A DNA stretch of 64,000 nt from Candidatus Krumholzibacteriia bacterium (GCA_024763215.1 JANTFX010000005.1:4210-68209), one strand, 5' to 3'; positions 19,049-62,467 are shown, counted from the stretch's first letter. Notes: generated by a model from the letters alone, not told the origin. A program made the numbers and translations.

Positions 19049-19111
19049 GGGCCGCAGGGTCCTTCCGTCTGGCTTCCTTCCGGGGTTTGCAGCTATTATG
19101 GTTGGGAACCA

Positions 19112-31719: not shown

Positions 31720-31761
31720 GGTCTACTCCTTGACTGGGACCGGGCCGCGGCCCGCCCGGGT

Positions 31762-32946
31762 TCAGATCGCCTCGAAAATGCCGGCCGCGCCCATGCCCGT
31801 GCCGATGCACATGGTCACCAGGGCGTACTTGCCGCCGCGTCGTTTGAGTTCGTACAGGGCGCTGGTGGTCAGCTTGGCTCCGGTGCAGCCAAGGGGATGG
31901 CCCAGGGCGATGGCGCCGCCGTTGGGGTTCAGGCGCGGGTCCTGGGGATCCAGGCCCAGGCGCTTGCAGACCGCCAGGCTCTGGGCCGCGAAGGCCTCGT
32001 TGAGCTCGATCACATCCATCTGGTCCAGGCTCAGCCCTGCGGCGGCCATGACCTTGGGCACCGCGGCCACCGGGCCGATGCCCATGACCTCGGGTTCCAC
32101 GCCGGCCACCGCGTAATCCACGAAGCGGGCCAAAGGCTCGGCGCCCAGCTCGGCCGCCAGCTCGGGTGTGGTCAGCAGCACGGCCGCCGCCCCGTCGCTC
32201 ATCTGGCTGCTGTTGCCGGCGGTCACGGTGCCGCCCTGCTTGAAGGCCGGCCGCAGGCGGGCCAGGGCCTCGACGGTGGTGTCGGCGCGGGGGCCCTCGT
32301 CCACCTTGAATTCGACCTCCCTCGTGACGGGGCGGCCCTTCTTGTCGGTGCCTGGCAGCTGAGCCATGACCGGCGTGATCTCGTCGGCGTACCGGCCCTC
32401 GTTGATGGCCGCCGCGGCCTTCATGTTGCTGTGGTAGGCGAACTCGTCCTGGGCCTCGCGGCTGATCCCGTCGCTGGCTGCGACGTTCTCGGCGGTGATG
32501 CCCATGTTGGTCAGGAACTGGGGGTTCTCGGCGGCCAGGGTGGGGTTGGGCAGGTAGCGCAGCCCCCCCATGGGGACCATGGTCATGGTCTCGACCCCGC
32601 CGGCGATGACGAAATCCGACTGCCCGGTCATGATCTGCCGGGCGCCGATGTCGATGGTCTGCAGACCCGAGCTGCAGAACCGGTTGACGGTCATGCCGGG
32701 CACCGAAACGGGCAACCCCGCCAGCAGGGCGATGTTGCGGCCCACGTTCATGCCCTGTTCGCCCTCGGGCATGGCGCAGCCCATGATCACGTCCCCGATG
32801 CGCTCCGGATCCAGGTCGGGGAACCGGGCCAGGATGTCCTTGACCACGGCGGCCCCCAGGTCGTCGGGACGGGTGTAACGAAGGGTCCCCTTGATGGCCT
32901 TGCCCACGGCGGTGCGGCGGGCGGCGATGACAACGACTTCTCTCAT
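31762..32946 (-). CDS. acetyl-CoA C-acyltransferase (thiolase)
   Basis: N-terminus [13 protein letters not shown]..., active-site Cys contexts NRFCSSGLQ and C-terminus [10 protein letters not shown]. Confidence 0.85.
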
Positions 32947-32965
32947 CTTGCTCTCCTTCTGCCCG

Positions 32966-35338
<2,373 letters not shown>

Positions 35339-35410
35339 GCAATCCGCCTTTCGTGGGTGGGCCCGCACGGATGCCTGCGGGCCGGACCAGGGTTCCGTCT
35401 GGATGTGTAA

Positions 35411-35457
35411 AATGAATGCCTATTCATTATCCTAAACAGTATCGTCCGGGATGTCAA
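35411..35457 (-). promoter_or_regulatory. beta-oxidation operon promoter with an overlapping FadR(TetR)-type operator
   Basis: On the minus strand: TTGACA, 17 nt, TAGGAT, then immediately the palindrome AATGAATAGGCATTCATT at 35411-35428. The palindrome resembles Bacillus-type TetR-family FadR (YsiA) operator boxes of the TGAATGA...TCATTCA form. Confidence 0.45.
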
Positions 35458-35587
35458 CCCATTTAGATTTATCCGAAAATTTCATTGTTTTGCTCAATAA
35501 ATGGCAATATTATCCGATAAGAAGGTTCCGTGCCGCCGCCGCAGCTTTGCGGGCGAGCGATGATCGGTAGTGAATGGGTGTTCATAT

Positions 35588-36181
35588 ATGGCGCGAAAAG
35601 ACGAGCATGACAAGAAGGAACGCATCCTGGACGCGGCGACCATGGAGATCGCCCGCCGCGGTTACCACCAGACCACCGTGGCGGTCATCGCCCGCCGCGC
35701 CGGGGTGGCCGACGGCACCATCTACCTGTACTTCAAGAACAAGGAAGAGATCCTGGCCTCGCTGTTCGGGCGCGCCCTGGACCGGTTCATCGCCGAGGGC
35801 CGGCGGAAGCTGGAGGGGCTGTCCGGGGCCGAGGCCAAGCTGCGGGCCATCGTCGAGCTGCACCTGACCCTGGTTGGCCAGGACCGGGACCTGGCCATCA
35901 TCACCCAGGTCGAGCTGCGCCACAGCCTGCATTTTCTGGAGGAGCTGTCCCGCGCCAAGGTGGGCCGCTACCTGGGCATCATCGCCGAGGTCATAGCCGA
36001 GGGGGTCGCCGGGGGGGAGTTCCGTACGGACCTGGATCCGGTGCTGGCGGCCAAGGCGGTGTTCGGAGTGCTGGACGAGATGGCCACCGACTGGGTCCTC
36101 TCGCGCCGCAACATCCGCCTGGAGGCCAAGGCGCCCGAGGTGACCGCGCTGGTGATGGCGATGGTCAGGCCCGTTTCCTGA
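35588..36181 (+). CDS. TetR/AcrR-family transcriptional regulator (FadR-like), divergent from the beta-oxidation operon
   Basis: N-terminal HTH RILDAATMEIARRGYHQTTVAVIARRAGVADGTIYLYFKNKEEIL. ATG at 35588. Confidence 0.8.
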   Translation: MARKDEHDKKERILDAATMEIARRGYHQTTVAVIARRAGVADGTIYLYFKNKEEILASLFGRALDRFIAEGRRKLEGLSGAEAKLRAIVELHLTLVGQDRDLAIITQVELRHSLHFLEELSRAKVGRYLGIIAEVIAEGVAGGEFRTDLDPVLAAKAVFGVLDEMATDWVLSRRNIRLEAKAPEVTALVMAMVRPVS

Positions 36182-45546: not shown

Positions 45547-45560
<14 letters not shown>

Positions 45561-47637
45561 ACCCCGCCATGTCCAGCCCTTGCGGCAGATGCCTGATGGC
45601 CTCCACCAGCGCCTGCTCGTCCGGGTGGATGGCGTTTTCGGGCCCGTTGTCCAGAACCCCCGCCGAGGTTATGTACATCAGATAGCCGGCCCGTGAACAC
45701 GGGGAATGGCCGGCGATCCCGATGACGTGCCCCAATTCGTGCAGCGCGACCTCCGCCACCCGCTGTGCGGAATCCATGGTGCTGTGCAGGTAGACCTCCA
45801 TCCGTTGCGGGATGATGTTCCCCACCACGTAGCCTCCACGGGGTTCCAGGATGGATACCTGGCCGTTAAGGGTGGGATACTGATCCGAGTAGACGAACAC
45901 CACATCGGCAGTCTCGGGAGCGTCGGTTTCGACGAAATAGGGTTCGGGCATGGTCGTGTTCCATATCTCCAGAGCCCACCGGCTCTGGGCCTGGAAGTCG
46001 ACTTCGACGGGGGTGTCGTCGGCGGGAAGATATACGGTCAGCGGCCAGTGGTCCCACTTGTAGAGCTTGGTGTCGGGACGGTTGTCCGTCGGGAGGTTCG
46101 TCTTGGTCATGGCCCGCAGATAGGTCATGAAATCAGGAGTGGCCAGGGTGCAACGGGAGTCCATCTCGTGTTGCTCGACCAGGGGCAGGGGCAGGTCCTC
46201 GAGCGGGGAACCGACCGGCAATTCCAGGGTGTAGTCGAACCAGCGACCGGGATCGGTTTCGCCTGAAACCGTCCTGAGGGAGATGGGGAGGTTGTTCAGG
46301 ATTGCCGAGAACGCGAAAGCGCCGTCGATGTCCGTCGTCGTGCGCAGCGGCGGTTTCCCTTCTCTCGAGAGTTCCACCGGGACACCTGCCTGAAGCTGGC
46401 CATCGGCGGCGATGACCCTGCCGGTGACCGCTCCTGTCTGGGTGGGGACGGTACCCCATTGGCCTTCCAGAGGTGACGGTTGCCCAGCGCCATCCCACGC
46501 CCTGACGCCGAACCAATTCATGACGCCTGGGACCATGCCGTCTTCAGCTACGGAAAAAGTCCGGGTGTAGGATTCCTGGTTCGCAACGGCAGCCTGTTCG
46601 GAGAGCCGGCGGGCCTGGTTCCAGTTGGCATCGGTGAGGGGACCGTCGGGGCTGGTTCTGATCTCGTAGGTGGTGACCGGGTAAAGCGAGTCCTGCACCC
46701 ACTGCCAGGACACATCAACCAGCCCTGGACCATCACCGGGACGGACCTGGATGCCCTTGACCGATGCCGGGACCTGCCTGCGGTACTCGCCCGTGAAGGT
46801 GATGATCTGGTGTGGGCCCATGTGGAGGTCGAACTCGGTTTCCGGAACCAGGGAAAATTCCGGTACCTCGGCCCAGGAAATATGGTAGTCACCCGGTACC
46901 AGGTAGTCGATCGCCTGGTTTCCCCATCCCGTGATGGGGTTGCCGGGCCCTGTGATCTCCCAGAAGGCATTGAGACCCAGGGGATAATTGATGACCTCGA
47001 TGCGGCCATGCTGCGAGAGATCCGCCTCGATGGTGGCACTGAGGATACCGGTTTCTCCGGTGGAAACGGTGGCGGTTGGGGTCTGGGTGAGGAATCTGAA
47101 CCCCTCAGGAGGCGCCCACTGGATCCGGTACTCCCCCGGTGGGATCATGTCCAGGTAGGCGGTTCCCTGGCCGGTGAGGGAAAAATCATCAGGTCCGGAC
47201 AGGGTCCACGGTACGCTGAGGGAGGCAAACTGCTCATCGGCAAAAAGGATGTTGATGACCAGCTTTCCGCATGCCTGCGGCTGGGCGGCATAGGCCTGGT
47301 AAAAGACGGTGGTGTCGCCTGCGGTTGCGGTGGCCACACTGTCGGCGGATGCCGACAGGGACCAGCATGGAGGGCTGGCCCAGTGGATGGAGTAGGTTCC
47401 GGCCTGGAGGTCGGGCAAGGTCGAGGTTCCCCTGCCGAGCAGGAAAAAGTCGGCCGGTCCGCTCAAGGTCCAGACTTCCTGGATGGAATCGGGATCAACC
47501 GTGACGATGACGGTCGCCTTGGCCGCTGGTGGGGGTTGCACGGGGTTCTGGTCCTGGCAGGATGCGACCAGAACTCCCCAGACGGCAGCAGGCAGGAGAA
47601 GGCCGAGCCAGGAGGGAATGCTTCGTTGGCGGTGCAT
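45547..47637 (-). CDS. lipoprotein with repeated beta-sandwich-like modules and a C-terminal metzincin-like zinc protease domain
   Basis: Lipobox LVASC. Recurrent WTLSGPADF / TYSIHWA blocks. The zinc site is [12 protein letters not shown], an HExxHxxGxxxH motif. The last 14 nt converge on and overlap the mutB 3' end. Confidence 0.55.
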
Positions 47638-50826: not shown

Positions 50827-51903
50827 ATGACGGACAAGTTATTTCCCGACGCTGTGGCGAGTCATGTCGAATCCCTGGCACTGACCCCGGCTGAAGCCAG
50901 CCTCCACAACAACTTCGTGGTTTCGGCGAAATCCTTGCGAAGGGATTTCGTGCGCATGGTTTATTACCTGTTGCAGATCAAGGAACATTTGATCTATCGC
51001 AAGCTTGGCTTCAAGACAATGTCAAATTATGGAAAGGCCGTGGCCGGGCTGACTCCACGCCAGGTTTCAGACTTCCTCACGCTGGCGCGCCGCCTGCCCA
51101 GATTCCCCGAAGTTGAGGCGGCCTTGGCCGAGGGGAACCTGTCCTGGTCCCATGCCCGGATCATCACATCCAAAGCCGATCCTGAGCAACAATTGGAATG
51201 GATCAAGGCAGCCGGCACCTTGACCGTCGAGCAGTTGGCAGCTACGCCGTCGCATTCGGTTCCCAATGTTTTTCCGGAAAAGAAATCGCCGGAGTCGCAG
51301 CCTTCTCGTGATGGAGGTCTGCCCATGAAGCCAAAGCCCCAAAAGCCGAAAGTATTACCTGAAACGACCCTGCAGTATGTCAATCTGCGGCTGACGGGCA
51401 GCCAATATGCCGAATTGTCCCGCCTGCTGGAACAGGGGCAAGCCGCTACCGGCCTGTCCCGTGAAGAGATCGTTCTTCAAGCCCTGGAAAACGCAGCAAC
51501 GGGAAAAACGCAGCATGAACAATCGGCCTACTTGCAGGTGATCCTCGTGTGTCCTGATTGTGGTGAGGCGGTGTTACCGACCAGCCGGGGCGAGATCCGC
51601 GCGCCTCAGGCCTTGCTGAAGGCAGCTCATTGCGATGCGATTATCGAGGATTCCACTGGGGCACGCAAACATACCATCCCGCCGCGTATACGTCGGCAAG
51701 CACTGAAACGCGCCCGTTACCAATGCGAAAGGCCTGGATGTTCCAATACCGGGTTTCTGCAGATCCACCATCGCGTGCCCAGAGCTGGTGGTGGTAGCCC
51801 AGACCTGGACAATCTGGTGGTTCTTTGCTCTCGGTGTCATCAGCAATTGCACCATGATGAGGAATCAGCAAGGGCAGCCTTGAAACAGGTACCGGATATT
51901 TGA
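50827..51903 (+). CDS. DUF222-like N-terminal domain plus C-terminal HNH endonuclease
   Basis: C-terminal HNH zinc-finger nuclease motif CERPGCSNTGFLQIHHRVPRAGGGSPDLDNLVVLCSRCHQQLH. A second Cys pair, CPDCG, lies upstream. Confidence 0.7.
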   Translation: MTDKLFPDAVASHVESLALTPAEASLHNNFVVSAKSLRRDFVRMVYYLLQIKEHLIYRKLGFKTMSNYGKAVAGLTPRQVSDFLTLARRLPRFPEVEAALAEGNLSWSHARIITSKADPEQQLEWIKAAGTLTVEQLAATPSHSVPNVFPEKKSPESQPSRDGGLPMKPKPQKPKVLPETTLQYVNLRLTGSQYAELSRLLEQGQAATGLSREEIVLQALENAATGKTQHEQSAYLQVILVCPDCGEAVLPTSRGEIRAPQALLKAAHCDAIIEDSTGARKHTIPPRIRRQALKRARYQCERPGCSNTGFLQIHHRVPRAGGGSPDLDNLVVLCSRCHQQLHHDEESARAALKQVPDI

Positions 51904-51928
51904 GCGGGACGCATCATGATCGATGGGA

Positions 51929-51973
51929 CGAATAATTAGCATGAGGTATTAGAACACCCGCATATGTGTATGT
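51929..51973 (+). repeat. right direct repeat of the HNH cassette
   Basis: See the mobile_element entry. Confidence 0.6.
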
Positions 51974-51991
51974 TTCGAGCTTTATTCCGGG

Positions 51992-53296
51992 TCAGGCAGT
52001 CGGCGGTATGGGCTCGGGGACGGTCACGGTTTTCAGCGCGGCGTCGATGTCTTTCAGGCCGTTGCCGGTGACCATGACCGCGACCTGATCGTGATCGCCG
52101 ATCAGGCCCTGAGCACGGGCGGACAGCGCGCCGGCCAGGCCCGCGGCGCCGCTGGGCTCGGCGAATACCCCGGCCAGGCGCGCCAGCAGGCCGATGGCCT
52201 CCAGGATGGCTTCATCGGGCACGCTCAGGAAGGCGCCGCCGGTGCGGGCGACGTACTTCCAGGCCTTCACGCGGTTGCGGGGGATGCCCACGCTGATCGA
52301 GTCGGCGAGGGTGTTGGGTTGCACCGGCTCGATGGCCGCGAGGATCTCCCGGCCGCTCATGGCGGCGGGCTCGGCGGTGCATGCGCCCCACGCGGTGGCC
52401 AGGGGCGCGGCGCCCGCGGCCTGCACCCCGATCACCCGCGGCAAGCGGTCGATGACTCCCAGGGTGTGCAACTCCTGTAGCCCCTTGGCCACCGACGAGA
52501 TGATGCACCCGTCGCCCACCGGCACCATGACCACGTCGGGAGCAGCGCCGGCGGTTCCCGGGGCGCCGCCCCAATCACGCACCAGCTCCAGAATTGCTGT
52601 TTTCTTGCCCTCGACCAGCAGGGGGTTGTGGGCGCAGTTGCGGCTGTACCAGCGGTTCGCCGTGATTTGCCCCAGGGAAATCTCGAAGGTCTGGTCGTAG
52701 GTGCCGTCCACGCGCACCAGGTTCGCGCCGTGGATCAGCAGCTGGGCGAGCTTGGCGCGCGGGGCGGCCGCGGGCACGAAGATGCTGCTGCGCAGGCCGG
52801 CGCGGGCGGCCAACACCGCCAGGGAGGCCGCGGCGTTGCCGGTCGAGGCGCAGGCGATGTGATCCAACCCCAGCTGCACGGCGCGCGCGACGGCCACCGC
52901 CGCGGCGCGGTCCTTGAGGCTTCCCGAGGGCAGCCGGGTGTCGTCCTTCAGGACCAGTGTGCGCAGGCCGAGGTGGTCCGCAAGGCGCGGCGCGGCCACC
53001 GGCGGCAGCCCGGCCACGTTCCAGCCGTGATGATCAGCTTCCGGCTGCACCGGCAGCAGGTCGGCGAAGCGCCACAGGCCCGATGCACCGGGGTGGGCGG
53101 ACCACGCCGCTGCTTCGGTCCGCGTCAGCGCCGCCAAGGCCTGCAGGTCGTATTCCGCGTCCAGGATGCCGTCGATGCCGCAGTCCTCGCACACGAAGCC
53201 CTCGTAGTCGGTGCCGTACATGCGGCCGCAGACCACGCAGCGGCAGCCCCGCCAGTGGGGGTTGGTGTGGACGGCGGGAAGGCGTGCGGCGGTCAT
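51992..53296 (-). CDS. ThrC-family (fold-type II) PLP-dependent enzyme with an N-terminal Cys4 zinc ribbon
   Basis: The PLP-lysine motif PSGSLKDRAAA matches the ThrC SFKDRG motif. Gly-rich loop GNAAASLA. N-terminal CRCVVCG...CEDCG. Sits 5 nt downstream of the YgeW-like gene. Confidence 0.65.
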   Translation of the reverse strand: MTAARLPAVHTNPHWRGCRCVVCGRMYGTDYEGFVCEDCGIDGILDAEYDLQALAALTRTEAAAWSAHPGASGLWRFADLLPVQPEADHHGWNVAGLPPVAAPRLADHLGLRTLVLKDDTRLPSGSLKDRAAAVAVARAVQLGLDHIACASTGNAAASLAVLAARAGLRSSIFVPAAAPRAKLAQLLIHGANLVRVDGTYDQTFEISLGQITANRWYSRNCAHNPLLVEGKKTAILELVRDWGGAPGTAGAAPDVVMVPVGDGCIISSVAKGLQELHTLGVIDRLPRVIGVQAAGAAPLATAWGACTAEPAAMSGREILAAIEPVQPNTLADSISVGIPRNRVKAWKYVARTGGAFLSVPDEAILEAIGLLARLAGVFAEPSGAAGLAGALSARAQGLIGDHDQVAVMVTGNGLKDIDAALKTVTVPEPIPPTA

Positions 53297-53301
53297 GGCG
53301 G

Positions 53302-54279
53302 TTACATCGTCAGGGCCATGATGCCCTTGGCCGTGTGCAGGCGGTTCTCGGCCTGGTCCCAGACCACCGACTGGGGGCCGTCGATCACCGCGTCGGTGAC
53401 CTCCTGGCCGCGGGTGGCCGGCAACGGGTGCATGTAGATGGCCTCGGGGGCGGCCAACCCCATGCGCCGCTCGTCGCAGATCCAGTCGGGGTATTTCTCG
53501 ATGTGCTGCACGGCGGCCTCACGGTCGGGCTCGTGCACCAGGCAGCCCCAGCTCTTGGGGTAGACGATGTGGGCGCCCTCGAAGCCCGCATCCATGTCGT
53601 CGGTGACCTCGAACTTCGTCCCGGCGGCCCTGGCGTTGGCCTCGGCCTGGGCCAGGATCTCCGGCTGCAGCTTGAACTCGGGGGGATGGGCCAGGGTCAC
53701 ATCCAGGCCGAAACGGGTCATCAGCAGGATCTCGCTGTGGGGCACGCTGATGGGGCGCACATAGCTGGGCGCGTAGGTCCAGCTCACGGTGATCTTGCGG
53801 CCGCGGACCTCGTTCAGGAACTTCTCGCGGATGGTCATCAGATCGGCCATGGCCTGGAACGGATGGTAGATGTCGCACTGGGCGTTCATGACCGGCACGC
53901 GGCTGATGCCGGCGATCTTGCGCATGAAGGCGTTGCCCACACCCCAGTCGCAGTTGCGGACGCAGATGCCGTGGCCCATGCGGCTGAACACGCGCGCGGT
54001 GTCCTCGGCGGTCTCGCCGTGGCTCAGCTGCAGCTTGCCGGGGGTCAGGTCGTGGGCGTGGCCGCCGAGCTGGGTCATGCCCGCCTCGAAGGAGTTGCGG
54101 GTGCGCGTGCTCTGCTCGTAGAACATCATGAACAGGGTCTTGTCGCGCAGCAGGGCGTGGGGCTCGTCGCGGTAGAACTTGCGCTTGAGATCCCAGCTGG
54201 TCTGCAGGGCGAGTTCCAGCTCGTCGGCGGACCAGTCCTGGGTGGTGATGAAATGACGTCCCTGCAGGGGTTTGCTCAT
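53302..54279 (-). CDS. YgeW-like knotted carbamoyltransferase (OTC/ATC superfamily)
   Basis: STRTR motif, HPFQ (HPxQ) and HPLP (HCLP-like). Long stretches are alignable to the E. coli YgeW sequence as I recall it, for example LSHGETAEDTARVFS..., NAQCDIYHPFQAMADL and SWTYAPSYVRPISVPHSEILLMTRFGLDVTLAHP. Start ATG at 54279. Confidence 0.7.
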   Translation of the reverse strand: MSKPLQGRHFITTQDWSADELELALQTSWDLKRKFYRDEPHALLRDKTLFMMFYEQSTRTRNSFEAGMTQLGGHAHDLTPGKLQLSHGETAEDTARVFSRMGHGICVRNCDWGVGNAFMRKIAGISRVPVMNAQCDIYHPFQAMADLMTIREKFLNEVRGRKITVSWTYAPSYVRPISVPHSEILLMTRFGLDVTLAHPPEFKLQPEILAQAEANARAAGTKFEVTDDMDAGFEGAHIVYPKSWGCLVHEPDREAAVQHIEKYPDWICDERRMGLAAPEAIYMHPLPATRGQEVTDAVIDGPQSVVWDQAENRLHTAKGIMALTM

Positions 54280-54424
54280 GGCGGGGCCTCTTTCTCGCGG
54301 AAGGTTTCCGGTGCCGGTTTTGTACCCTGCAATGGTAACCCCTACGCATGGCGCGGTCCAAGCCCGAACCTGAAAAAGCCGCCCGCGCGGTGGCGGGCGG
54401 CACGGAAACAGCAAAAGCCGGTTG

Positions 54425-55051
54425 TTATCTGAAGGTCGCCTTCAACGCGCCCCAGCCGGTGGCCTCGTCCGCCACGCTGCCGCAGTTGTCGTGGTGGCTG
54501 CCGAGGTAGGTGAAGGTGTCCACCGCCTCGAAGGACCATTCCAGGCACGGGTCGAACGCGTCGTCGATCACCGCGTCGCCGCTGCAGATGCTGGGCAGGC
54601 GGATCAGGGTGTGGTTCTGGGTCGTGCCGTCGTTGCAACCCCAGTAGCTGCCCGGATCCTCGCCGACCCGGCCGATGCTGTCGACGGGCTGGCCGGCGTA
54701 GCTGAGGACCAGGGCGTCGTTGCCGCTGAACGCCAGCTCCGCGTCGGCCAAGTCGGCCAGCGCCAGCAGGGTCGATCCGGCCAGGGAGTTGACCACGACG
54801 AACACGCCGCCCGAAGGCAGGCTGACCGCCGGCAAGGCGACCGAACCCGCCGCGCCCGCGGCGCCGTTGGGGTAGCGGTCGATGGCGTAACCGGAAAGGT
54901 TCACCGCGTCGGCGGTGCCGTTGTAGATCTCGATGGCCTGGTTGTCAGCGGATCCTTCCACGTATTCGGAGATCAGCAGATCCGAGACCTGGGCCATGGC
55001 CGAGCCGGCCAACAGCAGGAGCAGGCCGAGCATCGTTAACGATTTCATCAT
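54425..55051 (-). CDS. secreted lamin-tail-domain (LTD) protein
   Basis: AGGAGT ribosome-binding site and signal peptide MMKSLTMLGLLLLLAGSAMA. LISEYVEGSADNQAIEIYNGT is the LTD hallmark. Confidence 0.6.
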   Translation of the reverse strand: MMKSLTMLGLLLLLAGSAMAQVSDLLISEYVEGSADNQAIEIYNGTADAVNLSGYAIDRYPNGAAGAAGSVALPAVSLPSGGVFVVVNSLAGSTLLALADLADAELAFSGNDALVLSYAGQPVDSIGRVGEDPGSYWGCNDGTTQNHTLIRLPSICSGDAVIDDAFDPCLEWSFEAVDTFTYLGSHHDNCGSVADEATGWGALKATFR

Positions 55052-55192
55052 AGAACTCCTGATTCGGTTGGGGTCAAACCGTACCCTCGGCAGGGCAAGC
55101 CCTGCCCATGACCAGGAATCCGTCACAGATTCATCCTGGGCGATGGTGAGATTATATCAAAACAATGGCATAAATGTCAAACTTATTCGCGC

Positions 55193-56401
55193 TTACCCTG
55201 GCCCGGCCGCGGCCCAGCGGGCCGGCAGGGCCGCGTAGACGGCGCACGCCTCGATGACATGGGAGGCCGGGCAGTGCTCGTTGGCGCGGTGGGCCTGTTG
55301 CTCGGGTCCCGGGCCCAGTCCGATGCACGGCACCTGGTGCAGGCCCATGATGGCCACGCCGTTGGTGCTGAAGTTCCAGCGCGAGATCTCGGGCTCGCGG
55401 CCCAGGGCCGAGGTGTAGGCCTGGCGCGCGGCATCCAGCACCGGGTGATCTTCGTCCAGCACCCAGGTGGGGAAGTACTTGTCCATGGGGTAGACGAGCC
55501 CCGTCCAGCCCGGTTCGCGGTAGGTCAGGGTGAAGACCTCGGCCTCGACCCCGGCCGCGGACAGGGCGGCTTCGACCTCGGCCAGGGCCGACTCGCGGGT
55601 CTCGCCCCGGGTCAGGCGGCGGTCGATGTGGAACTCGGCCTGGTCGGGCACGGCGCACAGGCTGGGGGTGTTGCAGCCGATCCAGCTCACCGCGCACGTC
55701 CCCTTGCCCAGGAAGGGGTCGTCGGCGAGCTGCTCGTTGAGCTGTTCTATGGCCGTGATCGCCGGGGCGATCTTGTACACCGCGTTGTCCCCGAGGTGGG
55801 GCATGGCGCCGTGGCAGCTGCGGCCGCGCGTGCGCACGCGGATCTCCATGCGGCCGCGGTGGCCGCGGTTCAGGCGCATGTTGGTCGGTTCGGTGGATAC
55901 CACGAACTCTGGCGCCAGCTCCTTCTCCTGCAGGATGTAGTGCCAGCACAGGCCGTCGCAGTCCTCTTCCATGACCGAGCCCACCATCCACACCTGGACG
56001 CCATCGAGCAGGCCCTGCTCCTTCATGATCGCTCCGGCGTGTACCATGGCTGCCATGCCGGCCTTCTGGTCCACCGCGCCCCGGCCGTAGACAAGGCCCT
56101 CTTCCAGCTTGCCTTCGAAGGGATCGCACTCCCACTGGTCCCTGTCCTGCACGTCCACGGTGTCGATGTGGGCGTCGAAGGCCACCACGCGCGGCCCGTC
56201 CCCGATGCGCCCAAGGATGTTGCCGAGGGGGTCGATGCGGACCTCGTCGAACCCGACATCGCGCATCTCCTGCTCGATGCGCCGGATGACGGGCTCTTCC
56301 TGCCCGCTGAGGCTGGGGATGGCCACGATGTCGCGCAGAAAGCCGATGATGCGGTCGCCGCGCGCCTGGGCGGCGACCATGGTGTTGCCGGGCTTGGTCA
56401 T
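55193..56401 (-). CDS. M20-family metallopeptidase / deacylase, YgeY-like
   Basis: AIPSLSGQEEP, HIDTVDV and GAVDQKAGMAAM are M20 metal-ligand regions. GGAG ribosome-binding site. The start at 56401 overlaps the SsnA-like stop (ATGA). Confidence 0.75.
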   Translation of the reverse strand: MTKPGNTMVAAQARGDRIIGFLRDIVAIPSLSGQEEPVIRRIEQEMRDVGFDEVRIDPLGNILGRIGDGPRVVAFDAHIDTVDVQDRDQWECDPFEGKLEEGLVYGRGAVDQKAGMAAMVHAGAIMKEQGLLDGVQVWMVGSVMEEDCDGLCWHYILQEKELAPEFVVSTEPTNMRLNRGHRGRMEIRVRTRGRSCHGAMPHLGDNAVYKIAPAITAIEQLNEQLADDPFLGKGTCAVSWIGCNTPSLCAVPDQAEFHIDRRLTRGETRESALAEVEAALSAAGVEAEVFTLTYREPGWTGLVYPMDKYFPTWVLDEDHPVLDAARQAYTSALGREPEISRWNFSTNGVAIMGLHQVPCIGLGPGPEQQAHRANEHCPASHVIEACAVYAALPARWAAAGPG

Positions 56402-57777
56402 TTCCTCATCTCCATCATTTTCCAGATCCTGGCGGCGGTGTCCTGCAGGAAGGCCGCGTCCGCCGGGGGGGCGTCGCCGCGGGTGTAGATGCGCTTGCCG
56501 CCCACGTACACCGAGGCGATGTCCCAGGGGTGGAAGCAGAACAGCAGGTGGCTGAGCCAGTTGTCGCCGGCCAGGGGTGTCTTGCGGAAGGTGTCCAGGA
56601 CGATGAAATCGGCCGGCGCGCCCGCATCCAGGCTGCCGAACGGCTCGCCGAAGACCTCGCGGGCCAGGCGGTAGTTGCCCAGCCAGAAGCGGGCGGCGCC
56701 CTGGTGGCCCAAGGGCCCGCGGCCGCCCTCGTTGCCGCGGAAATAGGTGGCCCGCAGCTCGCCCCACAGGTTGTCGTCCAGGCCGTCGGTGCCCAGGGCG
56801 CAGCGGGACGGGAAGCGGTCCACCGGCGCGCGGCCCACCCCGTTGTTCATGTTGGACCGCCCGCAGTGCACCAGCCAGCAGCGGTGATCCTCCAGCGACT
56901 GCATGTCCAGGGGGGACAGGTCCACGCCGTGGACGAAGAGGCTGCCCGGATGCAGCAGCCCGTTCTCCTCGAGCCGTTCGAGGGGATCCTTCCAGCCGCG
57001 CTCCCGGCTGACTTCCCGGTCGGTGGGGCCCTCGGCCAGGTGGATGTGCAGGCCGGTGTCGTAGCGGCTGCAGATATCCCCCAGCAGCTTCAGGGTCTTG
57101 TCCTCGAGGGTGAAGCTGGCGTGGGCGCCCACCAGGCCGCGGAAGCGGGGGACGCCGCCGGGGCGCTGCTCGGCGAGCTTCATCAGGTAGCGCTCGTTCT
57201 CCTCCAGGGTCATGTCGCGCTGGCCCTTGCCGCCCCGGTCGGTGGCCTCGTAACAGAGGCAGCCGCGCAGGCCGATCTCGCCGAGGCCCTGCTCGATGCG
57301 GTCCAGGGAGCCGCCGACGGCGGCCAGGCTGGCGTGGTGGTCGAAGATCATGGTGGTGCCGCAACGCACCGCGTCCCAACCGCCGGCCAGGGCGCTCAGG
57401 TACACGGCCTCGTTGTCCAGGGAGCGGTCCAGGGGCCACCAGACCTCGGTCAGGATGTCGGTGAACGTTTCCAGGGGGGCGGTGGGCTGGGGCATGCCCG
57501 CGGCGAGGGTGGCGTACAGGTGCCCGTGGGCGTTGATATTCCCCGGCAACAGCGTCACCCCGGACAGGTCGACGACCTCCTCACCCGCCTGCGGCTGCAG
57601 ATCCTCGCCACGCTCGACGACGCGCTCTCCCTTGATGCGCAGATCCCCGCGGACGACGCGGGGGTCCGGTTCGGCATCCATGGCCACGGGGAAGTAGTCC
57701 AGGATGATCCCGTTCTTCAGGAGCAGGGAATGTTCCTGCGCCGAGGGGGGGCTTCCCGCCGATTCCTTGTCGCTCAC
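56398..57777 (-). CDS. SsnA-like amidohydrolase (chlorohydrolase/aminohydrolase superfamily)
   Basis: Metal-binding HxH (NAHGH) and downstream HLAE and DHH motifs. LLLKNGIIL is the typical SsnA N-terminus. GTG at 57777 is preceded by GGAGG at the canonical spacing. Confidence 0.7.
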   Translation of the reverse strand: MSDKESAGSPPSAQEHSLLLKNGIILDYFPVAMDAEPDPRVVRGDLRIKGERVVERGEDLQPQAGEEVVDLSGVTLLPGNINAHGHLYATLAAGMPQPTAPLETFTDILTEVWWPLDRSLDNEAVYLSALAGGWDAVRCGTTMIFDHHASLAAVGGSLDRIEQGLGEIGLRGCLCYEATDRGGKGQRDMTLEENERYLMKLAEQRPGGVPRFRGLVGAHASFTLEDKTLKLLGDICSRYDTGLHIHLAEGPTDREVSRERGWKDPLERLEENGLLHPGSLFVHGVDLSPLDMQSLEDHRCWLVHCGRSNMNNGVGRAPVDRFPSRCALGTDGLDDNLWGELRATYFRGNEGGRGPLGHQGAARFWLGNYRLAREVFGEPFGSLDAGAPADFIVLDTFRKTPLAGDNWLSHLLFCFHPWDIASVYVGGKRIYTRGDAPPADAAFLQDTAARIWKMMEMRK

Positions 57778-57959
57778 GATATTTTCCTCCTGCCCGCTTC
57801 CAGGCGGCCACATCCACCGGCGACCAGGGCCGATGGTCGTCGAAAACTTAACACATGAAACCGGGTGAGGGAAATCCCCAGAACATCCCCGGAACATCCG
57901 CCGACCCGGGGTGGGGCAGGCCCCCGCACGGGGCGGGGGCCCGGCTGGATGGGCAGGTG

Positions 57960-59003
57960 CTACTTGTCGCTCGGCAGAAGGTCGTCGACCTGCTTGAAGA
58001 TGTTCTTGGTGGTGTAATCGGTCACCACCCAGAGGGTGTCCTGGCCCCGGACGCGCATCCAGGTGCCGGCCGGGTGATCGCCCTCGGCCTCGCGCTTGTC
58101 ACCAAACTCCAGCACGACCTCGCTGCCGTCCTGCTTGACGAGGGTGGCGGTGCGGGACGGCTTGTCCAGGCCGATGGCGGCCAGGTCCTGCCCGGGATCG
58201 CCCACGTCGGTGGCGCGGATGCTCACCAGGGTGCCCATCACGCCGTCGGCCTTGGTCTTGGCCAGGGCCTCCTTGCGGGGCTTGATGAGCTTCCACTCCC
58301 AGACCGAACGGTCCGGCTTGGGCTCGGCGCCGGTGGTATCGGACGAGTCCACCTCGGTCACGGTGAATTCCTTCTGCATCTCCAGGACGTGCTTGCCGTC
58401 CTTGAGGATAATGCGGTCGATGGCCAACCGGTCCTCCTTGACCGCCTGCAGGTCCAGGAACTGCTTGTTCTTGGGCGCGCTGATATCGCCGTAGATGCCC
58501 AGGGGCGACAGCAGGCTCACGGTGCTCAGATAGACCGCGTGGCTGCCGTCCAGACGGACGAAGTTGCCCGGCTGGCCCTGGGACCGGTTGCCGACTTCCA
58601 GGGCGATGACCGGCTTGCCGTCCTTGTAGCAACGGATGTGCACCGCGGTCGTATCGGCCAGGCCGTAATCAGCCACGACGTCGGCCTTGTCCGAGCGGAA
58701 CTCCCCGCTCAGGTTGCTGACGGCCTTGAGCAGGCCGTCGATGCGGTTGGCGGCCGCCTTGACGTTCCAGGCCGTGGCGACCTTCCAGCCGTCCGGATCC
58801 CGGACCAGGTCCACGGTCACGTCCTGGGCGCCCTGGCCGAGGGTGATGCGGTCCAGGTCGTCGGCGGCGTACTCGGTCGGGATCAGGGTCTCGGTGGCCG
58901 CGCGGTTGGTCTCCTTGTGATGGCTGGCGCGCTGCAGCAGGCTGATGCCGCCGAGCACCACCAGCACCACCACCAGGATGATGAGATTGCGGGTGTTGTT
59001 CAT
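57960..59003 (-). CDS. DUF4340-domain protein, the terminal gene of the GldG-type ABC operon
   Basis: N-terminal transmembrane anchor LIILVVVLVVLGGISLL followed by a soluble domain. The gene order ABC ATPase, ABC-2 permease, GldG, DUF4340 is the canonical arrangement. Confidence 0.6.
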   Translation of the reverse strand: MNNTRNLIILVVVLVVLGGISLLQRASHHKETNRAATETLIPTEYAADDLDRITLGQGAQDVTVDLVRDPDGWKVATAWNVKAAANRIDGLLKAVSNLSGEFRSDKADVVADYGLADTTAVHIRCYKDGKPVIALEVGNRSQGQPGNFVRLDGSHAVYLSTVSLLSPLGIYGDISAPKNKQFLDLQAVKEDRLAIDRIILKDGKHVLEMQKEFTVTEVDSSDTTGAEPKPDRSVWEWKLIKPRKEALAKTKADGVMGTLVSIRATDVGDPGQDLAAIGLDKPSRTATLVKQDGSEVVLEFGDKREAEGDHPAGTWMRVRGQDTLWVVTDYTTKNIFKQVDDLLPSDK

Positions 59004-59025
59004 GTCGTATCCTCCTCCCGTGTCC

Positions 59026-60759
59026 TCAACCGTGGTGGTGCAGGTTCGCGGCGTAACGGGCGGCGTCCTTGCGCCGCATGCCGGCGCGCATGATGCCGTA
59101 GATGGCCAGGATGACCGGCACCAGCAGGACCACGAACAGCCGCCAGATCATCTTCTGCGCGGCCTGGACCGGGCGGATCACCCGCTGGGTCAGGCTCTTG
59201 GCGCGGATGTTCAGCAGGTCGTGGGAGCCGGCCACGAAGTCCACGGCGTTGCGCATCAGGTCGCTGTTCTGGGGGGCGTCCAGGATGTTGTCGTCGAACA
59301 TCTTGGCGCTGCCTATGACCAGCAGGGTCGACGGTTCGGGCTGGACCTCGGGCTCCGGTGCGGCCGCGGCCGCGGTGGTGTCGCCGTCGGCCGGCCACTC
59401 GGGGACGCCCTGATCGGCGAAGGCGTCGGGGAAGACGCCCTCGGCCTTGACCATCAGCGGCTGGGGGCCGAGCATCTTCTTGCCGTGCGGGTCCATGGCG
59501 CTGCCCGGAAGCGGCGCGGTGTCGAATTTCATGGCCCAGCAGTCGGGGCTGCTGACGATGAGGTTCGTCGCGCTCAGGCCGTTCTTGGACAGGACATCCG
59601 GATCGGGCTGGACGGGGGTGCCCCACAGGTAGAACAGCTGGCTGATGTGGTTGACCAGCGGGGAGTCCTTGAGCATCTGGTTCTCGGTCACGCGGATCTG
59701 GATGGGCAGCTTCACCGGCTCACGGGTCTGCATGCGCAGGCCCCCGATGTTGACCTCGCGCGGCAGGTCGATGGTCTCCATGGAGCTGTCGAAGAAGTGG
59801 TCCTGGGAAACCCCCAGGCCGCACTTGTCCAGCATGGGCTCCAGCCCCGTATCCAGGTCGCTGCCGGAGATGGTCCAGCCGCCGCTGCGTCCGGGGGCGT
59901 AGTTGTACTCGTGGGCCTGCACGCCCATGATCACCGGCACCCCGCTACGCAACAGGCGGTTGATCTCGTAGACCTGCCGCTCGTTGAACTTGGTCAGGGC
60001 CATGACCACGAGGCAGTCCAGGTCGTCGGGCACGGGTTCGCTCTTGGTGAAAGTGACCGGCACCACCTCGTAGTGGGCCTGCCGGATCATGTCGGCCAGC
60101 TTGGTGTACTGGTCCTGGGGCTCGGGCGGCTGCATGCCCTGCTGCAGGTACATCATGGCCAGCTGCCGGTCCACGTCCTTCTTCGGGGCGAAGATCCCGA
60201 TCCGGGGGGTCTTCTCGCGGGTCAGCCGGTAGATGGGGTCGATGACATCCTGTTCGAGGGACGCCAGATCCTGGGGCAGGATCCGCGGCAGCACCTCCTC
60301 GGGCTTGTCCTTGTAGGCGATGGTCATGGCGCTCCAGATCACCTTGATGCCCATCTCGTCCTTGTCGATGGACTGGACCTGGAACGGCTGGATGTTCTTG
60401 GCCGCCAGGTTCTTCTGCATGTCCGGGTCGTCCTGGGGGTTGTGGACCGAGAACTGCAGCATGCCGTGGCTGACCTGGGAGAAGTTGCGCATCTGCTCGG
60501 TGATGTCCCGCTCGAGGTTGCGCAGCTGGGTGGGCATCTTCTCGGAGGGAGTGATGTAGAGCTTGACCTGGACGGGCACCTTGAGGCCCTCGAGGATCTT
60601 CACCGCCGAGGGCGACAAGGTGAAGAGCTGGTCGCTGGTCATGTCCACGCGGGCCCCCTGCATGTTGCCCAGCACCGAGATCAGGAAAAATACGATACCG
60701 GCCAGCAACACCGTAGCGATGCTGAAGGTCAGACGGAAGTTGCGTCGTTTGCTGCTCAT
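59026..60759 (-). CDS. GldG-like ABC-transporter-associated protein
   Basis: N- and C-terminal transmembrane helices flank a large periplasmic domain. Its size and its position after the ABC-2 permease match GldG. Confidence 0.65.
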   Translation of the reverse strand: MSSKRRNFRLTFSIATVLLAGIVFFLISVLGNMQGARVDMTSDQLFTLSPSAVKILEGLKVPVQVKLYITPSEKMPTQLRNLERDITEQMRNFSQVSHGMLQFSVHNPQDDPDMQKNLAAKNIQPFQVQSIDKDEMGIKVIWSAMTIAYKDKPEEVLPRILPQDLASLEQDVIDPIYRLTREKTPRIGIFAPKKDVDRQLAMMYLQQGMQPPEPQDQYTKLADMIRQAHYEVVPVTFTKSEPVPDDLDCLVVMALTKFNERQVYEINRLLRSGVPVIMGVQAHEYNYAPGRSGGWTISGSDLDTGLEPMLDKCGLGVSQDHFFDSSMETIDLPREVNIGGLRMQTREPVKLPIQIRVTENQMLKDSPLVNHISQLFYLWGTPVQPDPDVLSKNGLSATNLIVSSPDCWAMKFDTAPLPGSAMDPHGKKMLGPQPLMVKAEGVFPDAFADQGVPEWPADGDTTAAAAAPEPEVQPEPSTLLVIGSAKMFDDNILDAPQNSDLMRNAVDFVAGSHDLLNIRAKSLTQRVIRPVQAAQKMIWRLFVVLLVPVILAIYGIMRAGMRRKDAARYAANLHHHG

Positions 60760-60760
60760 G

Positions 60761-61486
60761 CTAGTACTTCCTCCCTTCCAGCCAGAGGGTGTTGAGGGTC
60801 AGGAACAGGCCGGTCAGGCCCAGGAAATAGGCCAGATCCCCCAGGGAGATCACGCCCTTGAGCATGGTGTCGTAGTGGCCCGACAGGCCCACGTAGTTCT
60901 GCAGGAAGGAACCCAGCCCCGGCAGCCAGCCGTCGATGGTGGCGGCCACCCCGCCCACGCCCAGGATGAAGACCAGGAAGCAGGCCATGATCCCCAGGAT
61001 CACCGCGGAGATCTGGTCGCGGGTCAGCCCGCTGGTGAAGGTGCCGATGCCCAGGTACAGCCCGCCGAGCAGGACGCTGCCGATGTAGCCGCTCCAGATG
61101 GCGCCCATGTCGGGGTTGCCGAGCGCGGCCACCATGACCACCAGGGGCAGGGTGCCGGCCAGGGCGATGAGGTAGAAGGTCAAGGCCGCCAGGTACTTGC
61201 CCAGCATGACGTCGCGGGCCTTCATGGGCAGGGTCATCAGCAGCTCGAAGGTGCCGGTGCGCTTGTCCTCGGCCCACAGCCGCATGCTCACGGCCGGGAT
61301 GAAGAAGATCAGGAAGAAGGGCAGGTTCCCGAAGAAGGCCCGTAGGTCTGCCGTCTCGTTCAGGAAGAAGCCCGTCATGAACAGCCCGCTGTTGAGCACC
61401 AGGAAGGCGATGATGAAGATGTAGGCGATGGGGCTGTTGAAGTAGGCTGAGAACTCGCGCTTGAAGACCGTCATGATGTTCCGCAT
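60761..61486 (-). CDS. ABC-2-family transporter permease (GldF-like)
   Basis: Six predicted transmembrane segments. Typical ABC-2 composition. Confidence 0.75.
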   Translation of the reverse strand: MRNIMTVFKREFSAYFNSPIAYIFIIAFLVLNSGLFMTGFFLNETADLRAFFGNLPFFLIFFIPAVSMRLWAEDKRTGTFELLMTLPMKARDVMLGKYLAALTFYLIALAGTLPLVVMVAALGNPDMGAIWSGYIGSVLLGGLYLGIGTFTSGLTRDQISAVILGIMACFLVFILGVGGVAATIDGWLPGLGSFLQNYVGLSGHYDTMLKGVISLGDLAYFLGLTGLFLTLNTLWLEGRKY

Positions 61487-62467
61487 CTAGGCCACCCCCC
61501 TTGCCCGGTCGTGGTTCCCCCGCAGGGAGCGCCGGGTCAGCTCGATGAAGGTGTCTTCCAGGGAGAACACGGCCTCGCGCAGCTCGGTCAGCTCCCAGCC
61601 GTGCTGCTTACACAGGCGGTCCAGGGCGCCGATCAGGTCGCGGTCGAAGGGGCCGCGCACCTCGAAGCGGCTGCCCCGGTTGGCGTCCAGGTCGCGCACG
61701 GTCAGGGCCTTGACCTCGGTGACCTCGTCCAGGCCGCGCAGGGCCTCTTCCACGCCGCCGGGCGCGTTGCGCACCGCGAGGATCACCCGGTCGCTGCGCA
61801 TGGCTTCGCGCGCGAGCTTGTCGATATGACCGTCGGCGATGATCCGGCCCTCGTTGATGATGGCCACCCGGTCGGTCACCGGGCCGACCTCCTGCAGGAT
61901 GTGCGTGGAGAAGATGATGGTCTTGTGCCCGGCGAGGCTCTTGATCAGGTCGCGGATGCCGAGGATCTGCAGGGGGTCCAGACCGCTGGTGGGCTCGTCC
62001 AGGATCAGGATGTCCGGGTCGTGGATCAGCGCCTGCGCCAGGCCCGTGCGCTGCTTGAAGCCCTTGGACAGGTCGCCGATGGGCTTCTTGAATTCGGTGA
62101 CCAGGCCGCAGGCCTCGACGCACCAGTCCAGGCGCTGCTTCAGGCGCGCGCCGTCCAGGCCGCGGGCCCTGCCCACGAACGTCAGGTATTCCTGGACGTT
62201 CATGTCGGGATACAGGGGAACGTTTTCGGGCAGATAACCTATGCGGCCGCGCACGGCCAGCGGCTGCTCCAGGACGTCGATCCCATCGACCTTCACGGTG
62301 CCGGCATCGGGCGCGATGAAGGTGGTGATGATCTTCATGGTCGTGCTCTTGCCCGCGCCGTTGGGACCGAGGAAACCGAGGATTTCCCCCTTTTCGATCC
62401 TGAACGACACGTCATCGAGCGCGAGCGTTGTCCCGAAGCTCTTCGTGATGCCTTGGACTTCGATCAT
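61487..62467 (-). CDS. ABC transporter ATP-binding protein (GldA-like)
   Basis: Walker A GPNGAGKST, signature LSKGFKQR, Walker B ILILDEPTSGLD. Confidence 0.85.
   Translation of the reverse strand: MIEVQGITKSFGTTLALDDVSFRIEKGEILGFLGPNGAGKSTTMKIITTFIAPDAGTVKVDGIDVLEQPLAVRGRIGYLPENVPLYPDMNVQEYLTFVGRARGLDGARLKQRLDWCVEACGLVTEFKKPIGDLSKGFKQRTGLAQALIHDPDILILDEPTSGLDPLQILGIRDLIKSLAGHKTIIFSTHILQEVGPVTDRVAIINEGRIIADGHIDKLAREAMRSDRVILAVRNAPGGVEEALRGLDEVTEVKALTVRDLDANRGSRFEVRGPFDRDLIGALDRLCKQHGWELTELREAVFSLEDTFIELTRRSLRGNHDRARGVA

Follow-up and report, generated by a model that had tools for sequence, protein, structure and literature searches.

A four-gene Krumholzibacteriota locus as a candidate variant of the reductive uric-acid pathway, with a short YgeW-related transferase and a ThrC-derived PLP enzyme

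A 64,000-nucleotide stretch of DNA from a Candidatus Krumholzibacteriia bacterium (GCA_024763215.1 JANTFX010000005.1:4210-68209), hereafter referred to as the window, carries on its minus strand genes for an SsnA-like metal amidohydrolase, a YgeY-family M20 hydrolase, a short YgeW-related carbamoyltransferase, and a fold-type-II pyridoxal phosphate (PLP) enzyme that resembles threonine synthase (ThrC). We consider it likely, with a probability of roughly 0.6, that these four enzymes correspond to the hydrolytic lower half of the reductive uric-acid (2,8-dioxopurine) pathway in a reduced, variant form, in which a ThrC-derived lyase has taken over from YgeX. The locus is distinguished by its compact subfamily of YgeW-related transferase, by the ThrC-derived enzyme that has apparently displaced DpaL, and by the stripped four-gene set present in Krumholzibacteriota. 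What is new here is probably a variant of a known pathway with two unusual enzymes that databases mislabel.

The corresponding island of Escherichia coli was reconstituted in 2025 as the reductive uric-acid pathway (Li et al., PMC12507026; Liu et al., bioRxiv 10.1101/2025.04.24.650524). According to these two studies, XdhD-YgfM reduces urate to 2,8-dioxopurine, which YgfK then dearomatises; SsnA carries out the ring opening that yields ureidomethyl-hydantoin, and HyuA opens the hydantoin to give 2,3-diureidopropionate. Of the two ureido groups, one is then removed by YgeW through phosphorolysis, the product of which the carbamate kinase YqeA uses to make ATP, and the other is hydrolysed by YgeY; 2,3-diaminopropionate is finally turned into pyruvate and ammonia by YgeX. 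As to which of the two ureido groups YgeW attacks, the studies differ (PMC12507026; 10.1101/2025.04.24.650524). An earlier note on the window, made from the sequence alone, had described the E. coli island as poorly defined and had suggested catabolism of purines or carbamoyl compounds, with oxamate among the substrates to try; the first of these statements is now outdated, and the oxamate suggestion has been superseded by the reconstituted pathway.

If the window encodes a variant of this pathway, the SsnA-like amidohydrolase would open a ring of the reduced purine ureide, the short transferase would use phosphate to split one ureido group from 2,3-diureidopropionate as carbamoyl phosphate, and YgeY would hydrolyse the remaining ureido group to leave 2,3-diaminopropionate. 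The ThrC-derived PLP enzyme would then occupy the place of YgeX (DpaL) and, through a beta-amino elimination, release pyruvate and ammonia. The urate dehydroxylase, ring reductase, hydantoinase, and carbamate kinase steps would be encoded outside the window or supplied otherwise. Each of these proposed steps is inferred from homology and gene context.

The locus comprises five open reading frames (ORFs) arranged head to tail on the minus strand, from position 57777 down to 51992. The SsnA-like gene (56398-57777, 459 aa) begins at a GTG codon with a GGAGGA ribosome-binding site (RBS) 7 nt before it, and is followed by ygeY (55193-56401, 402 aa), whose own ATG forms an ATGA overlap with the TGA of the SsnA-like gene, through which the two are predicted to be translationally coupled. 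A gene encoding an exoprotein with a lamin-tail domain (LTD; 54425-55126, 233 aa) precedes the genes for the transferase (53302-54279, 325 aa) and the ThrC-like enzyme (51992-53296, 434 aa), the latter of which starts 5 nt (CCGCC) past the TAA of the transferase gene, as read directly from the junction sequence. The gene order, the overlap, the intervening exoprotein gene, and the 5-nt gap had all been described in the earlier note and were found as described. GC content at third codon positions (GC3) is 0.89-0.91 in all five ORFs, and because a GC3 of about 0.9 sets genes apart in DNA of 67% GC, which is the approximate GC content of this genome, we regard all five as real genes.

A pattern scan for the transferase, using one genome per species, returned at least 599 matching stretches, at least 597 of which encode a relative, and the best 80 were taken. 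The closest relative among these best 80 of at least 597 comes from a Candidatus Krumholzibacteriia metagenome-assembled genome and is 86% identical. From the stretches most similar to the query we compiled a census of 85 non-redundant loci by tblastn of pathway proteins against the 10 kb on either side of the transferase; the resulting fractions describe this subfamily rather than urate clusters as a whole. YgeY was present in 58 of the 85 loci (directly upstream of the transferase in 40), the ThrC-like enzyme in 55, carbamate kinase in 44, SsnA in 37, a CysK-like PLP enzyme in 31, an 8-oxoguanine-deaminase-like protein in 24, xanthine dehydrogenase subunits in 19, hydantoinase in 13, and a PydA-like reductase in 9. 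The ThrC-like enzyme is not peculiar to the window; it is the standard partner of the short transferase across hundreds of genomes. Nine loci of the Krumholzibacteriota type contained exactly the four-gene set of the window, in syntenic order and with no other pathway gene within the same 10-kb flanks. Because the four genes are syntenic in these nine related loci, and because their families co-occur across many phyla, the arrangement in the window is unlikely to be due to chance. The earlier note had made its assignment dependent on synteny in other genomes and on a transferase that does not group with ArgF or PyrB; synteny proved to be widely conserved, and the transferase lies outside ArgF/PyrB.

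More complete clusters are exemplified by the complete genome of Anoxybacter fermentans (locus L001), in which the genes are ordered ThrC-like enzyme, regulator, YgeY, transferase, serine hydroxymethyltransferase, 8-oxoguanine deaminase, SsnA, four xanthine dehydrogenase genes, PydA-like reductase, and adenine deaminase. The SsnA of this organism scores 668 bits and passes the SsnA cut-off. The Latescibacterota locus L006 combines a ThrC-like enzyme, a YqeC/MocA-like and a YqeB-like protein, the transferase, carbamate kinase, and a nucleoside ABC transporter, while loci L008, L039, and L055 encode xanthine dehydrogenase, hydantoinase, and YgfK orthologues. Among the loci other than L001 and L006, hydantoinase, GltD-like and dihydroorotate-dehydrogenase-like reductase subunits, and YgfK orthologues (46% and 35% identity) were identified. 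Many short-transferase loci belong to Chloroflexota (Anaerolineae), and many of the Chloroflexota clusters have no xanthine dehydrogenase nearby. Two ORFs (L014 11113-14199 and L015 12494-15592) that match YgfK in length, at about 1030 aa, were considered as YgfK candidates and rejected, as they encode secreted FlgD_ig-type proteins instead.

Several accessory genes of these clusters merit separate mention. A full-scoring serine hydroxymethyltransferase gene (L001 11107-12330) directly follows the transferase gene of Anoxybacter, which hints at a link to serine or glycine. The CysK-like protein, found together with the ThrC-like enzyme in L008 (5968-7350) and 30 further loci, is a CysK/CBS-like PLP enzyme of 460 aa that reaches the cut-off of no curated model. 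In ten loci, mostly of Chloroflexota (L043, L046, L050, L051, L062, L064, L068, L070, L076, and L087), a second carbamoyltransferase, similar to aspartate carbamoyltransferase (ATCase; TIGR00670, 244 bits), takes the place immediately upstream of the short transferase that YgeY usually occupies. In these loci phosphorolysis might account for the removal of both ureido groups; the arrangement recalls the "pseudo-ATCase group 2" found beside a ygeW homologue (Barba et al. 2013, PMC4016543).

Compared with the E. coli cluster (ygeW-ygeX-ygeY-hyuA-yqeA / ygfK-ssnA-ygfM-xdhD), the window shares an SsnA-type protein, YgeY, a YgeW-related transferase, and a fold-type-II PLP enzyme, and the short-transferase clusters of other phyla likewise carry xanthine dehydrogenase, a YgfK/PydA-like reductase, hydantoinase, carbamate kinase, and YqeB/YqeC. 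Unlike the E. coli cluster, however, the window clusters only four of about ten genes, and these are split by an exoprotein cassette; its transferase is about 70 aa shorter than YgeW, whose family model spans some 390-400 aa, its SsnA-like protein scores below threshold, and a ThrC-derived enzyme about 21% identical to YgeX (DpaL) stands in its place. Non-orthologous replacement is tolerated elsewhere in this pathway: Clostridioides difficile has UacX for YgfK and UacY for YgeW/YqeA, and Chloroflexota clusters with a putative F420-dependent reductase and neither XdhD nor YgfK have still been assigned to urate degradation (PMC12507026). Xanthine dehydrogenase and YgfK may thus be absent nearby, as they are in the window.

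Of the four enzymes, YgeY alone passes the curated models of its family. It scores well above both cut-offs (529 bits versus 321 for NF009555; 512 versus 321.5 for TIGR03526), shares 52% identity with its E. coli counterpart, and contains the M20 catalytic domain (PF01546, 89.5 bits) and dimerisation domain (PF07687, 63.2 bits). The SsnA-like protein falls below the NCBIfam SsnA cut-offs (326 bits versus 444 for NF005540; 306 versus 455.5 for TIGR03314), yet SsnA is its only strong family match, the next-best family scoring 121 bits, and its full-length identity to E. coli SsnA is 33%. A neighbour-joining tree, built without bootstrap or other support values, placed the SsnA-like clade on a long branch nested among bona fide SsnA proteins and well away from 8-oxoguanine deaminase and GuaD, suggesting that the amidohydrolase is a divergent, long-branch member of the SsnA clade. 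The proposal in the earlier note that these genes are homologues of the E. coli island is borne out by both proteins, with the proviso that the SsnA assignment holds at the level of best family and clade and not at that of the curated thresholds.

The transferase is more difficult to place, as it reaches the cut-off of none of the NCBIfam models that it matches. Its scores were 265 bits versus 306 (NF001986) and 256 versus 281 (TIGR00658) for ornithine carbamoyltransferase (OTC), 245 versus 500 for putrescine carbamoyltransferase, 228 versus 288 for N-acetylornithine carbamoyltransferase (AOTC), and 203 versus 453 (NF005538) and 192 versus 500 (TIGR03316) for YgeW, with the YgeW alignment ending at residue 289 of 325. 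A full-length search of the PDB returned near-equal scores for archaeal and bacterial OTCs (194 bits), YgeW (3q98; 181 bits), and AOTC (180 bits). When the substrate domain alone (residues ~150-290) was used, YgeW 3q98 scored 105 bits and the Enterococcus structure 2yfk 93 bits, versus 71 for AOTC and at most 40 for OTC. The proline-rich loop reads W-T-Y-A-P-S-Y-V-R-P-I-S-V-P in the window and W-A-Y-S-P-S-Y-G-K-P-L-S-V-P in YgeW, and both proteins have V-Y-P-K-S-W at the position of the D-x-x-x-S-M-G ornithine loop of OTC, the transferase continuing as Y-P-K-S-W-G-C where OTC reads D-V-W-A-S-M-G. A 12-member alignment of the family showed STRTRN, CDxYHPxQ, W-x-YAPSY-x-[RK]P-x-S-x-P, and KSWG to be invariant; the third transferase motif is HPLP in the lineage of the window, H[CA]LP in its relatives, and HCLP in OTC.

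Overall, the transferase is 35% identical to E. coli YgeW. It lacks the two YgeW insertions that follow KSW, and its C-terminal helix region is OTC-like, which would explain both the failure of the YgeW model and the full-length scores that lean towards OTC. An AlphaFold2 model had a pLDDT of 80 overall and of about 62 in the loop region; the first ten Foldseek hits to this model were knotted AOTC structures with TM-scores of about 0.77, barely above those of OTCs, a margin too small to tell knotted from unknotted folds apart, and E. coli YgeW was outside the top 50. Similar to the AOTCase/SOTCase/YgeW proteins (the YTCase group of Barba et al. 2013, PMC4016543), the transferase combines the carbamoyl-phosphate motifs STRT and HPxQ with a proline-rich loop behind W-T-Y and with KSW in place of SMG, but it differs from these knotted carbamoyltransferases in its HPLP motif, in its C-terminal region, and in passing no curated model. 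The combination STRT/HPFQ/HPLP matches no group in the motif table of that study exactly. Identity with the UGTCase described by the same authors (pseudo-ATCase group 1) was considered and rejected, given that the motifs differ (HPLA, ATCase-like). Taken together, these comparisons suggest that the transferase belongs to a distinct short subfamily related to YgeW and not to OTC. The YgeW-like identity put forward in the earlier note is consequently upheld as far as the substrate domain is concerned, while the full-length comparison favours OTC and the curated YgeW model fails.

The ThrC-like enzyme contains a PALP domain (Pfam, 220 bits) and falls just under the ThrC cut-offs (231 bits versus 303 for NF006050; 156 versus 167 for TIGR00260) and far from that of DpaL (41.7 bits versus 276 for NF006058). 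Its best PDB match is Mycobacterium tuberculosis ThrC, and the alignment of its catalytic domain with four solved ThrC structures (2d1f, 2zsj, 1uim, and 6cgq) extends over the whole domain, at about 35-40% identity by visual estimate. Both the PLP lysine (GSxKDR; GSLKDR in the window) and the STGN motif are kept. At its N-terminus the enzyme carries a CxxC...CxxC motif, a Cys4 zinc ribbon; by eye, about three quarters of the ThrC-like family keep this motif, and the remainder have CxxC...CPx[HD]G. The earlier note had called the enzyme ThrC-like rather than DpaL-like and had pointed out the Cys4 ribbon, both of which agree with the model scores and the motif.

The family departs from ThrC at five positions (Thermus thermophilus numbering 88, 154, 155, 160, and 188), which presumably form the O-phosphohomoserine phosphate site of Thermus ThrC; a literature search on the phosphate-site residues of ThrC gave no residue-level text. 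All four ThrC structures have T, N, S, R, and N at these positions, versus A, C, A, L, and D in the window. In all of the aligned syntenic ThrC-like proteins T88 is replaced by A, N154 mostly by C, A, or T, and S155 mostly by A or G; R160 is replaced, mostly by L, T, or M, in all but L068_2, which keeps the arginine, and N188 is replaced in all, by aspartate in every case except the outliers L026, L068, and L076. The phospho-substrate pocket thus appears to have been lost and an acidic residue gained. Compared with ThrC, the enzyme therefore shares the fold-type-II catalytic domain and differs in these five otherwise invariant positions, in the added Cys4 ribbon, and in its purine-catabolic context.

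The relationship to YgeX is of another kind. E. coli YgeX is about 21% identical to the ThrC-like proteins, and although the two share the PLP fold type and a proposed terminal position in the pathway, they are not orthologous. No YgeX orthologue was found in the 85 loci; the best matches to YgeX had 21-29% identity with scores of no more than 58 bits, and those with comparable coordinates landed on the ThrC-like or other PALP genes. Because the ThrC-like enzyme and YgeX have complementary distributions and a shared PLP fold type, the ThrC-derived enzyme appears to be the best candidate for the YgeX step, as a non-orthologous replacement. The exchange of the presumed phosphate pocket for a hydrophobic and acidic one provides a third ground. 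Threonine synthases are known from the literature to have a deaminase side activity, which would bring lyase chemistry within reach of the ThrC scaffold. A more far-reaching idea, which we regard as rather improbable, is that the ThrC-derived enzyme catalyses a reaction new for the ThrC fold, either the deamination or beta-replacement of 2,3-diaminopropionate or the elimination of a ureido or carbamate group from ureido-alanine. The four genes of Krumholzibacteriota would then encode a free-standing route from ureide to pyruvate that is fed otherwise than by the canonical xanthine dehydrogenase and reductase steps.

Public annotation would have these genes be neighbouring housekeeping genes, namely anabolic ArgF, ThrC, a deacylase of the ArgE/DapE type, and a generic amidohydrolase. 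Homologues of the transferase with 54-90% identity from many phyla are named "ornithine carbamoyltransferase" in databases, in line with the OTCs that head its full-length NCBIfam and PDB matches, and the top matches of the PLP enzyme are threonine synthases. Moreover, the ThrC-like orthologue of Anoxybacter (L001 6770-8029) passes the ThrC cut-offs (305.5 bits versus 303; 232 versus 167), so that automatic annotation will name ThrC-like proteins threonine synthase; this orthologue passes the models even though it lacks the five residues that are invariant in ThrC, which almost all of the ThrC-like family has lost. The transferase, for its part, scores below every OTC cut-off, has PKSWG for DxxxSMG, and possesses a YgeW-type substrate domain, and the M20 enzyme scores at most 181 bits with ArgE/DapE-type models versus 529 for YgeY. 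As cross-phylum synteny with carbamate kinase, SsnA, xanthine dehydrogenase, and hydantoinase would be unexpected for arginine and threonine genes, we give the housekeeping explanation very little credence.

The same enzymes could in principle run in the biosynthetic direction, making a carbamoylated diamino acid or cyclic ureide, such as a natural-product or osmolyte precursor, from carbamoyl phosphate, with the ThrC-like enzyme acting as the beta-replacement synthase that makes the diamino acid. Carbamoyltransferase reactions are reversible, the phosphorolysis by YgeW is thermodynamically unfavourable on its own according to published work, no carbamate kinase is nearby to pull the reaction in the catabolic direction, and enzymes of the ThrC type normally carry out replacement or addition chemistry. 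Conversely, the pocket needed for replacement on O-phosphoserine or O-phosphohomoserine seems to be gone, provided that the five residues do have the phosphate-site role we presume. The families also co-occur with catabolic markers, including carbamate kinase (44 of 85 loci), xanthine dehydrogenase, and 8-oxoguanine deaminase, and genes for a non-ribosomal peptide synthetase, a ligase, or export are not adjacent. A biosynthetic function thus strikes us as highly improbable.

Several observations weigh against the assignment of the four enzymes to the lower half of the urate pathway. The redox enzymes, hydantoinase, and carbamate kinase are absent from the 64-kb window and from the 10 kb on either side of the transferase in the nine related loci. 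Within the window, tblastn of the 64 kb with the xanthine dehydrogenase subunits, PydA/YgfK-type reductases, hydantoinase, carbamate kinase, and YqeC of related clusters gave no match, and Pfam scans of the other ORFs identified unrelated functions only and no further purine genes; the statement in the earlier note that neither carbamate kinase nor hydantoinase is present is in agreement with both searches, and xanthine dehydrogenase can be added to it. The long branch and sub-threshold scores of the SsnA-like protein point to a possible change of substrate. The transferase falls short of every curated model, and over its full length it matches OTCs best. The phosphate-site role of the five ThrC positions is presumed, and the lyase role of the ThrC-like enzyme is a putative one, deduced from gene context and pocket residues. 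Finally, a terminator-like hairpin behind the LTD gene implies that the four genes would not form a single transcript.

The absence of the redox, hydantoinase, and carbamate kinase genes and the divergence of the SsnA-like protein, together with the retention of the four genes as a minimal unit in the Krumholzibacteriota-type lineage, could also be explained by a stand-alone four-enzyme route that acts on another ureide or carbamoylated amino acid and is uncoupled from purine reduction in this lineage. Possible substrates include hydantoin or a dihydropyrimidine-type compound, albizziin, or another environmental beta-ureido amino acid; the ring opened by the SsnA-like enzyme would be that of a monocyclic compound, whose breakdown the other three enzymes would complete. 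Otherwise, however, the four families all occur in connection with purine clusters, and pathway genes are often split between loci elsewhere, as with the carbamate kinase that is published as being encoded apart from the cluster in Clostridium sporogenes and Collinsella. The Chloroflexota short-transferase clusters often have no xanthine dehydrogenase and have nonetheless been published as urate degradation. Because carbamate kinase is encoded elsewhere in some organisms, XdhD and YgfK are not found nearby in Chloroflexota, and hydantoinase lies near the transferase in only 13 of 85 loci, a split organisation of the pathway appears to be common. We consequently view the stand-alone route as unlikely, albeit worth keeping in mind, and favour the reduced variant of the urate pathway.

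Earlier literature descriptions of the ThrC-like enzyme or of the short transferase in urate clusters were not found, nor was literature on the metabolism of Krumholzibacteriota. The 2025 analyses scored neighbouring genes at the level of Pfam, with PF00185 taken as "YgeW" and PF00291 as "YgeX", and therefore do not separate the short transferase or the ThrC-derived enzyme; Krumholzibacteriota are not among the phyla that they list.

The LTD gene that divides the locus is probably a self-contained inserted cassette that parts the SsnA-like and ygeY genes from those of the transferase and the ThrC-like enzyme, and not a component of the pathway. Among related non-redundant loci it is present in three besides the window (L003, L009, and L013) and absent in five (L007, L011, L012, L014, and L015), from which we conclude that it is an insertion. 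A sigma-70-type promoter lies in front of it on the minus strand (55151-55180; TTGACA-N18-TATAAT with an extended -10 TG), matching the consensus at 12 of 12 positions and representing the only promoter-like site in the region 51700-58100. The likely true start of the gene is the ATG at 55051, which has its own RBS and is followed by a signal peptide. An intrinsic-terminator-like hairpin of nine G-C pairs and a T tract, also on the minus strand (54378-54401), is located directly 3' of the LTD stop codon. The protein matches the Pfam LTD domain with 54 bits, and its sole NCBIfam match is to the N-terminal region of the extracellular nuclease ExeM (94 bits versus a cut-off of 1300). Rfam scans of the locus in E-value mode, and of the window and loci L001, L007, and L039 in gathering mode, identified no riboswitch or other RNA; the sole match at the locus was sub-threshold and coincides with the LTD terminator hairpin. 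The secreted proteins of about 1030 aa noted above, which have a C-terminal FlgD_ig domain, are encoded between the transferase and the ThrC-like enzyme in L014 and L015, and exoprotein genes thus seem to interrupt the cluster repeatedly.

Should the assignment to urate catabolism be correct, the anaerobic urate pathway would reach from gut bacteria to uncultivated environmental phyla, among them Krumholzibacteriota, Anaerolineae, Calditrichota, Marinimicrobia, Elusimicrobia, and Latescibacterota, which would matter for how nitrogen and nucleic acids are turned over in sediments and groundwater. The names "ornithine carbamoyltransferase", which would concern at least 597 stretches, and "threonine synthase" would in that case mislead reconstructions of arginine and threonine metabolism and hide purine catabolism. 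From the perspective of enzyme evolution, the locus would represent a non-orthologous displacement in which the threonine-synthase scaffold was retooled into a putative diamino-acid lyase, and for the engineering of uricolytic strains the compact YgeW and a second type of lyase may offer alternative parts.

The locus is flanked by genes of other functions. Upstream, 182 nt from the start of the SsnA-like gene, lies an ABC-2 transporter operon (57960-62467, minus strand) that encodes an ATPase, a permease, an ABC_transp_aux/DUF7088 protein, and a DUF4340 protein, and that is found in the same position in L003 and L007. Downstream are an HNH endonuclease gene, cysS, meaB, and a methylmalonyl-CoA mutase gene. 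The HNH endonuclease ORF (50827-51903, plus strand) lies between the ThrC-like gene and cysS in a patch of low GC content (0.60 versus about 0.67); in L003, cysS follows 150 nt after the ThrC-like gene, and the HNH ORF of the window hence looks recently inserted. An ORF of 696 aa (45547-47637, minus strand) with a faint CarboxypepD_reg match and a GC content of 0.63 separates the methylmalonyl-CoA mutase gene from meaB, which overlap directly in L003, and is probably an insertion as well. A 1676-aa ORF (15686-20716, minus strand) showed only a weak match to an alpha-amylase catalytic domain. The rest of the window, which includes a TetR-linked beta-oxidation operon (29929-36181), a PKD-rich subtilase, a prolyl oligopeptidase, and a PAS hybrid kinase, appears ordinary.

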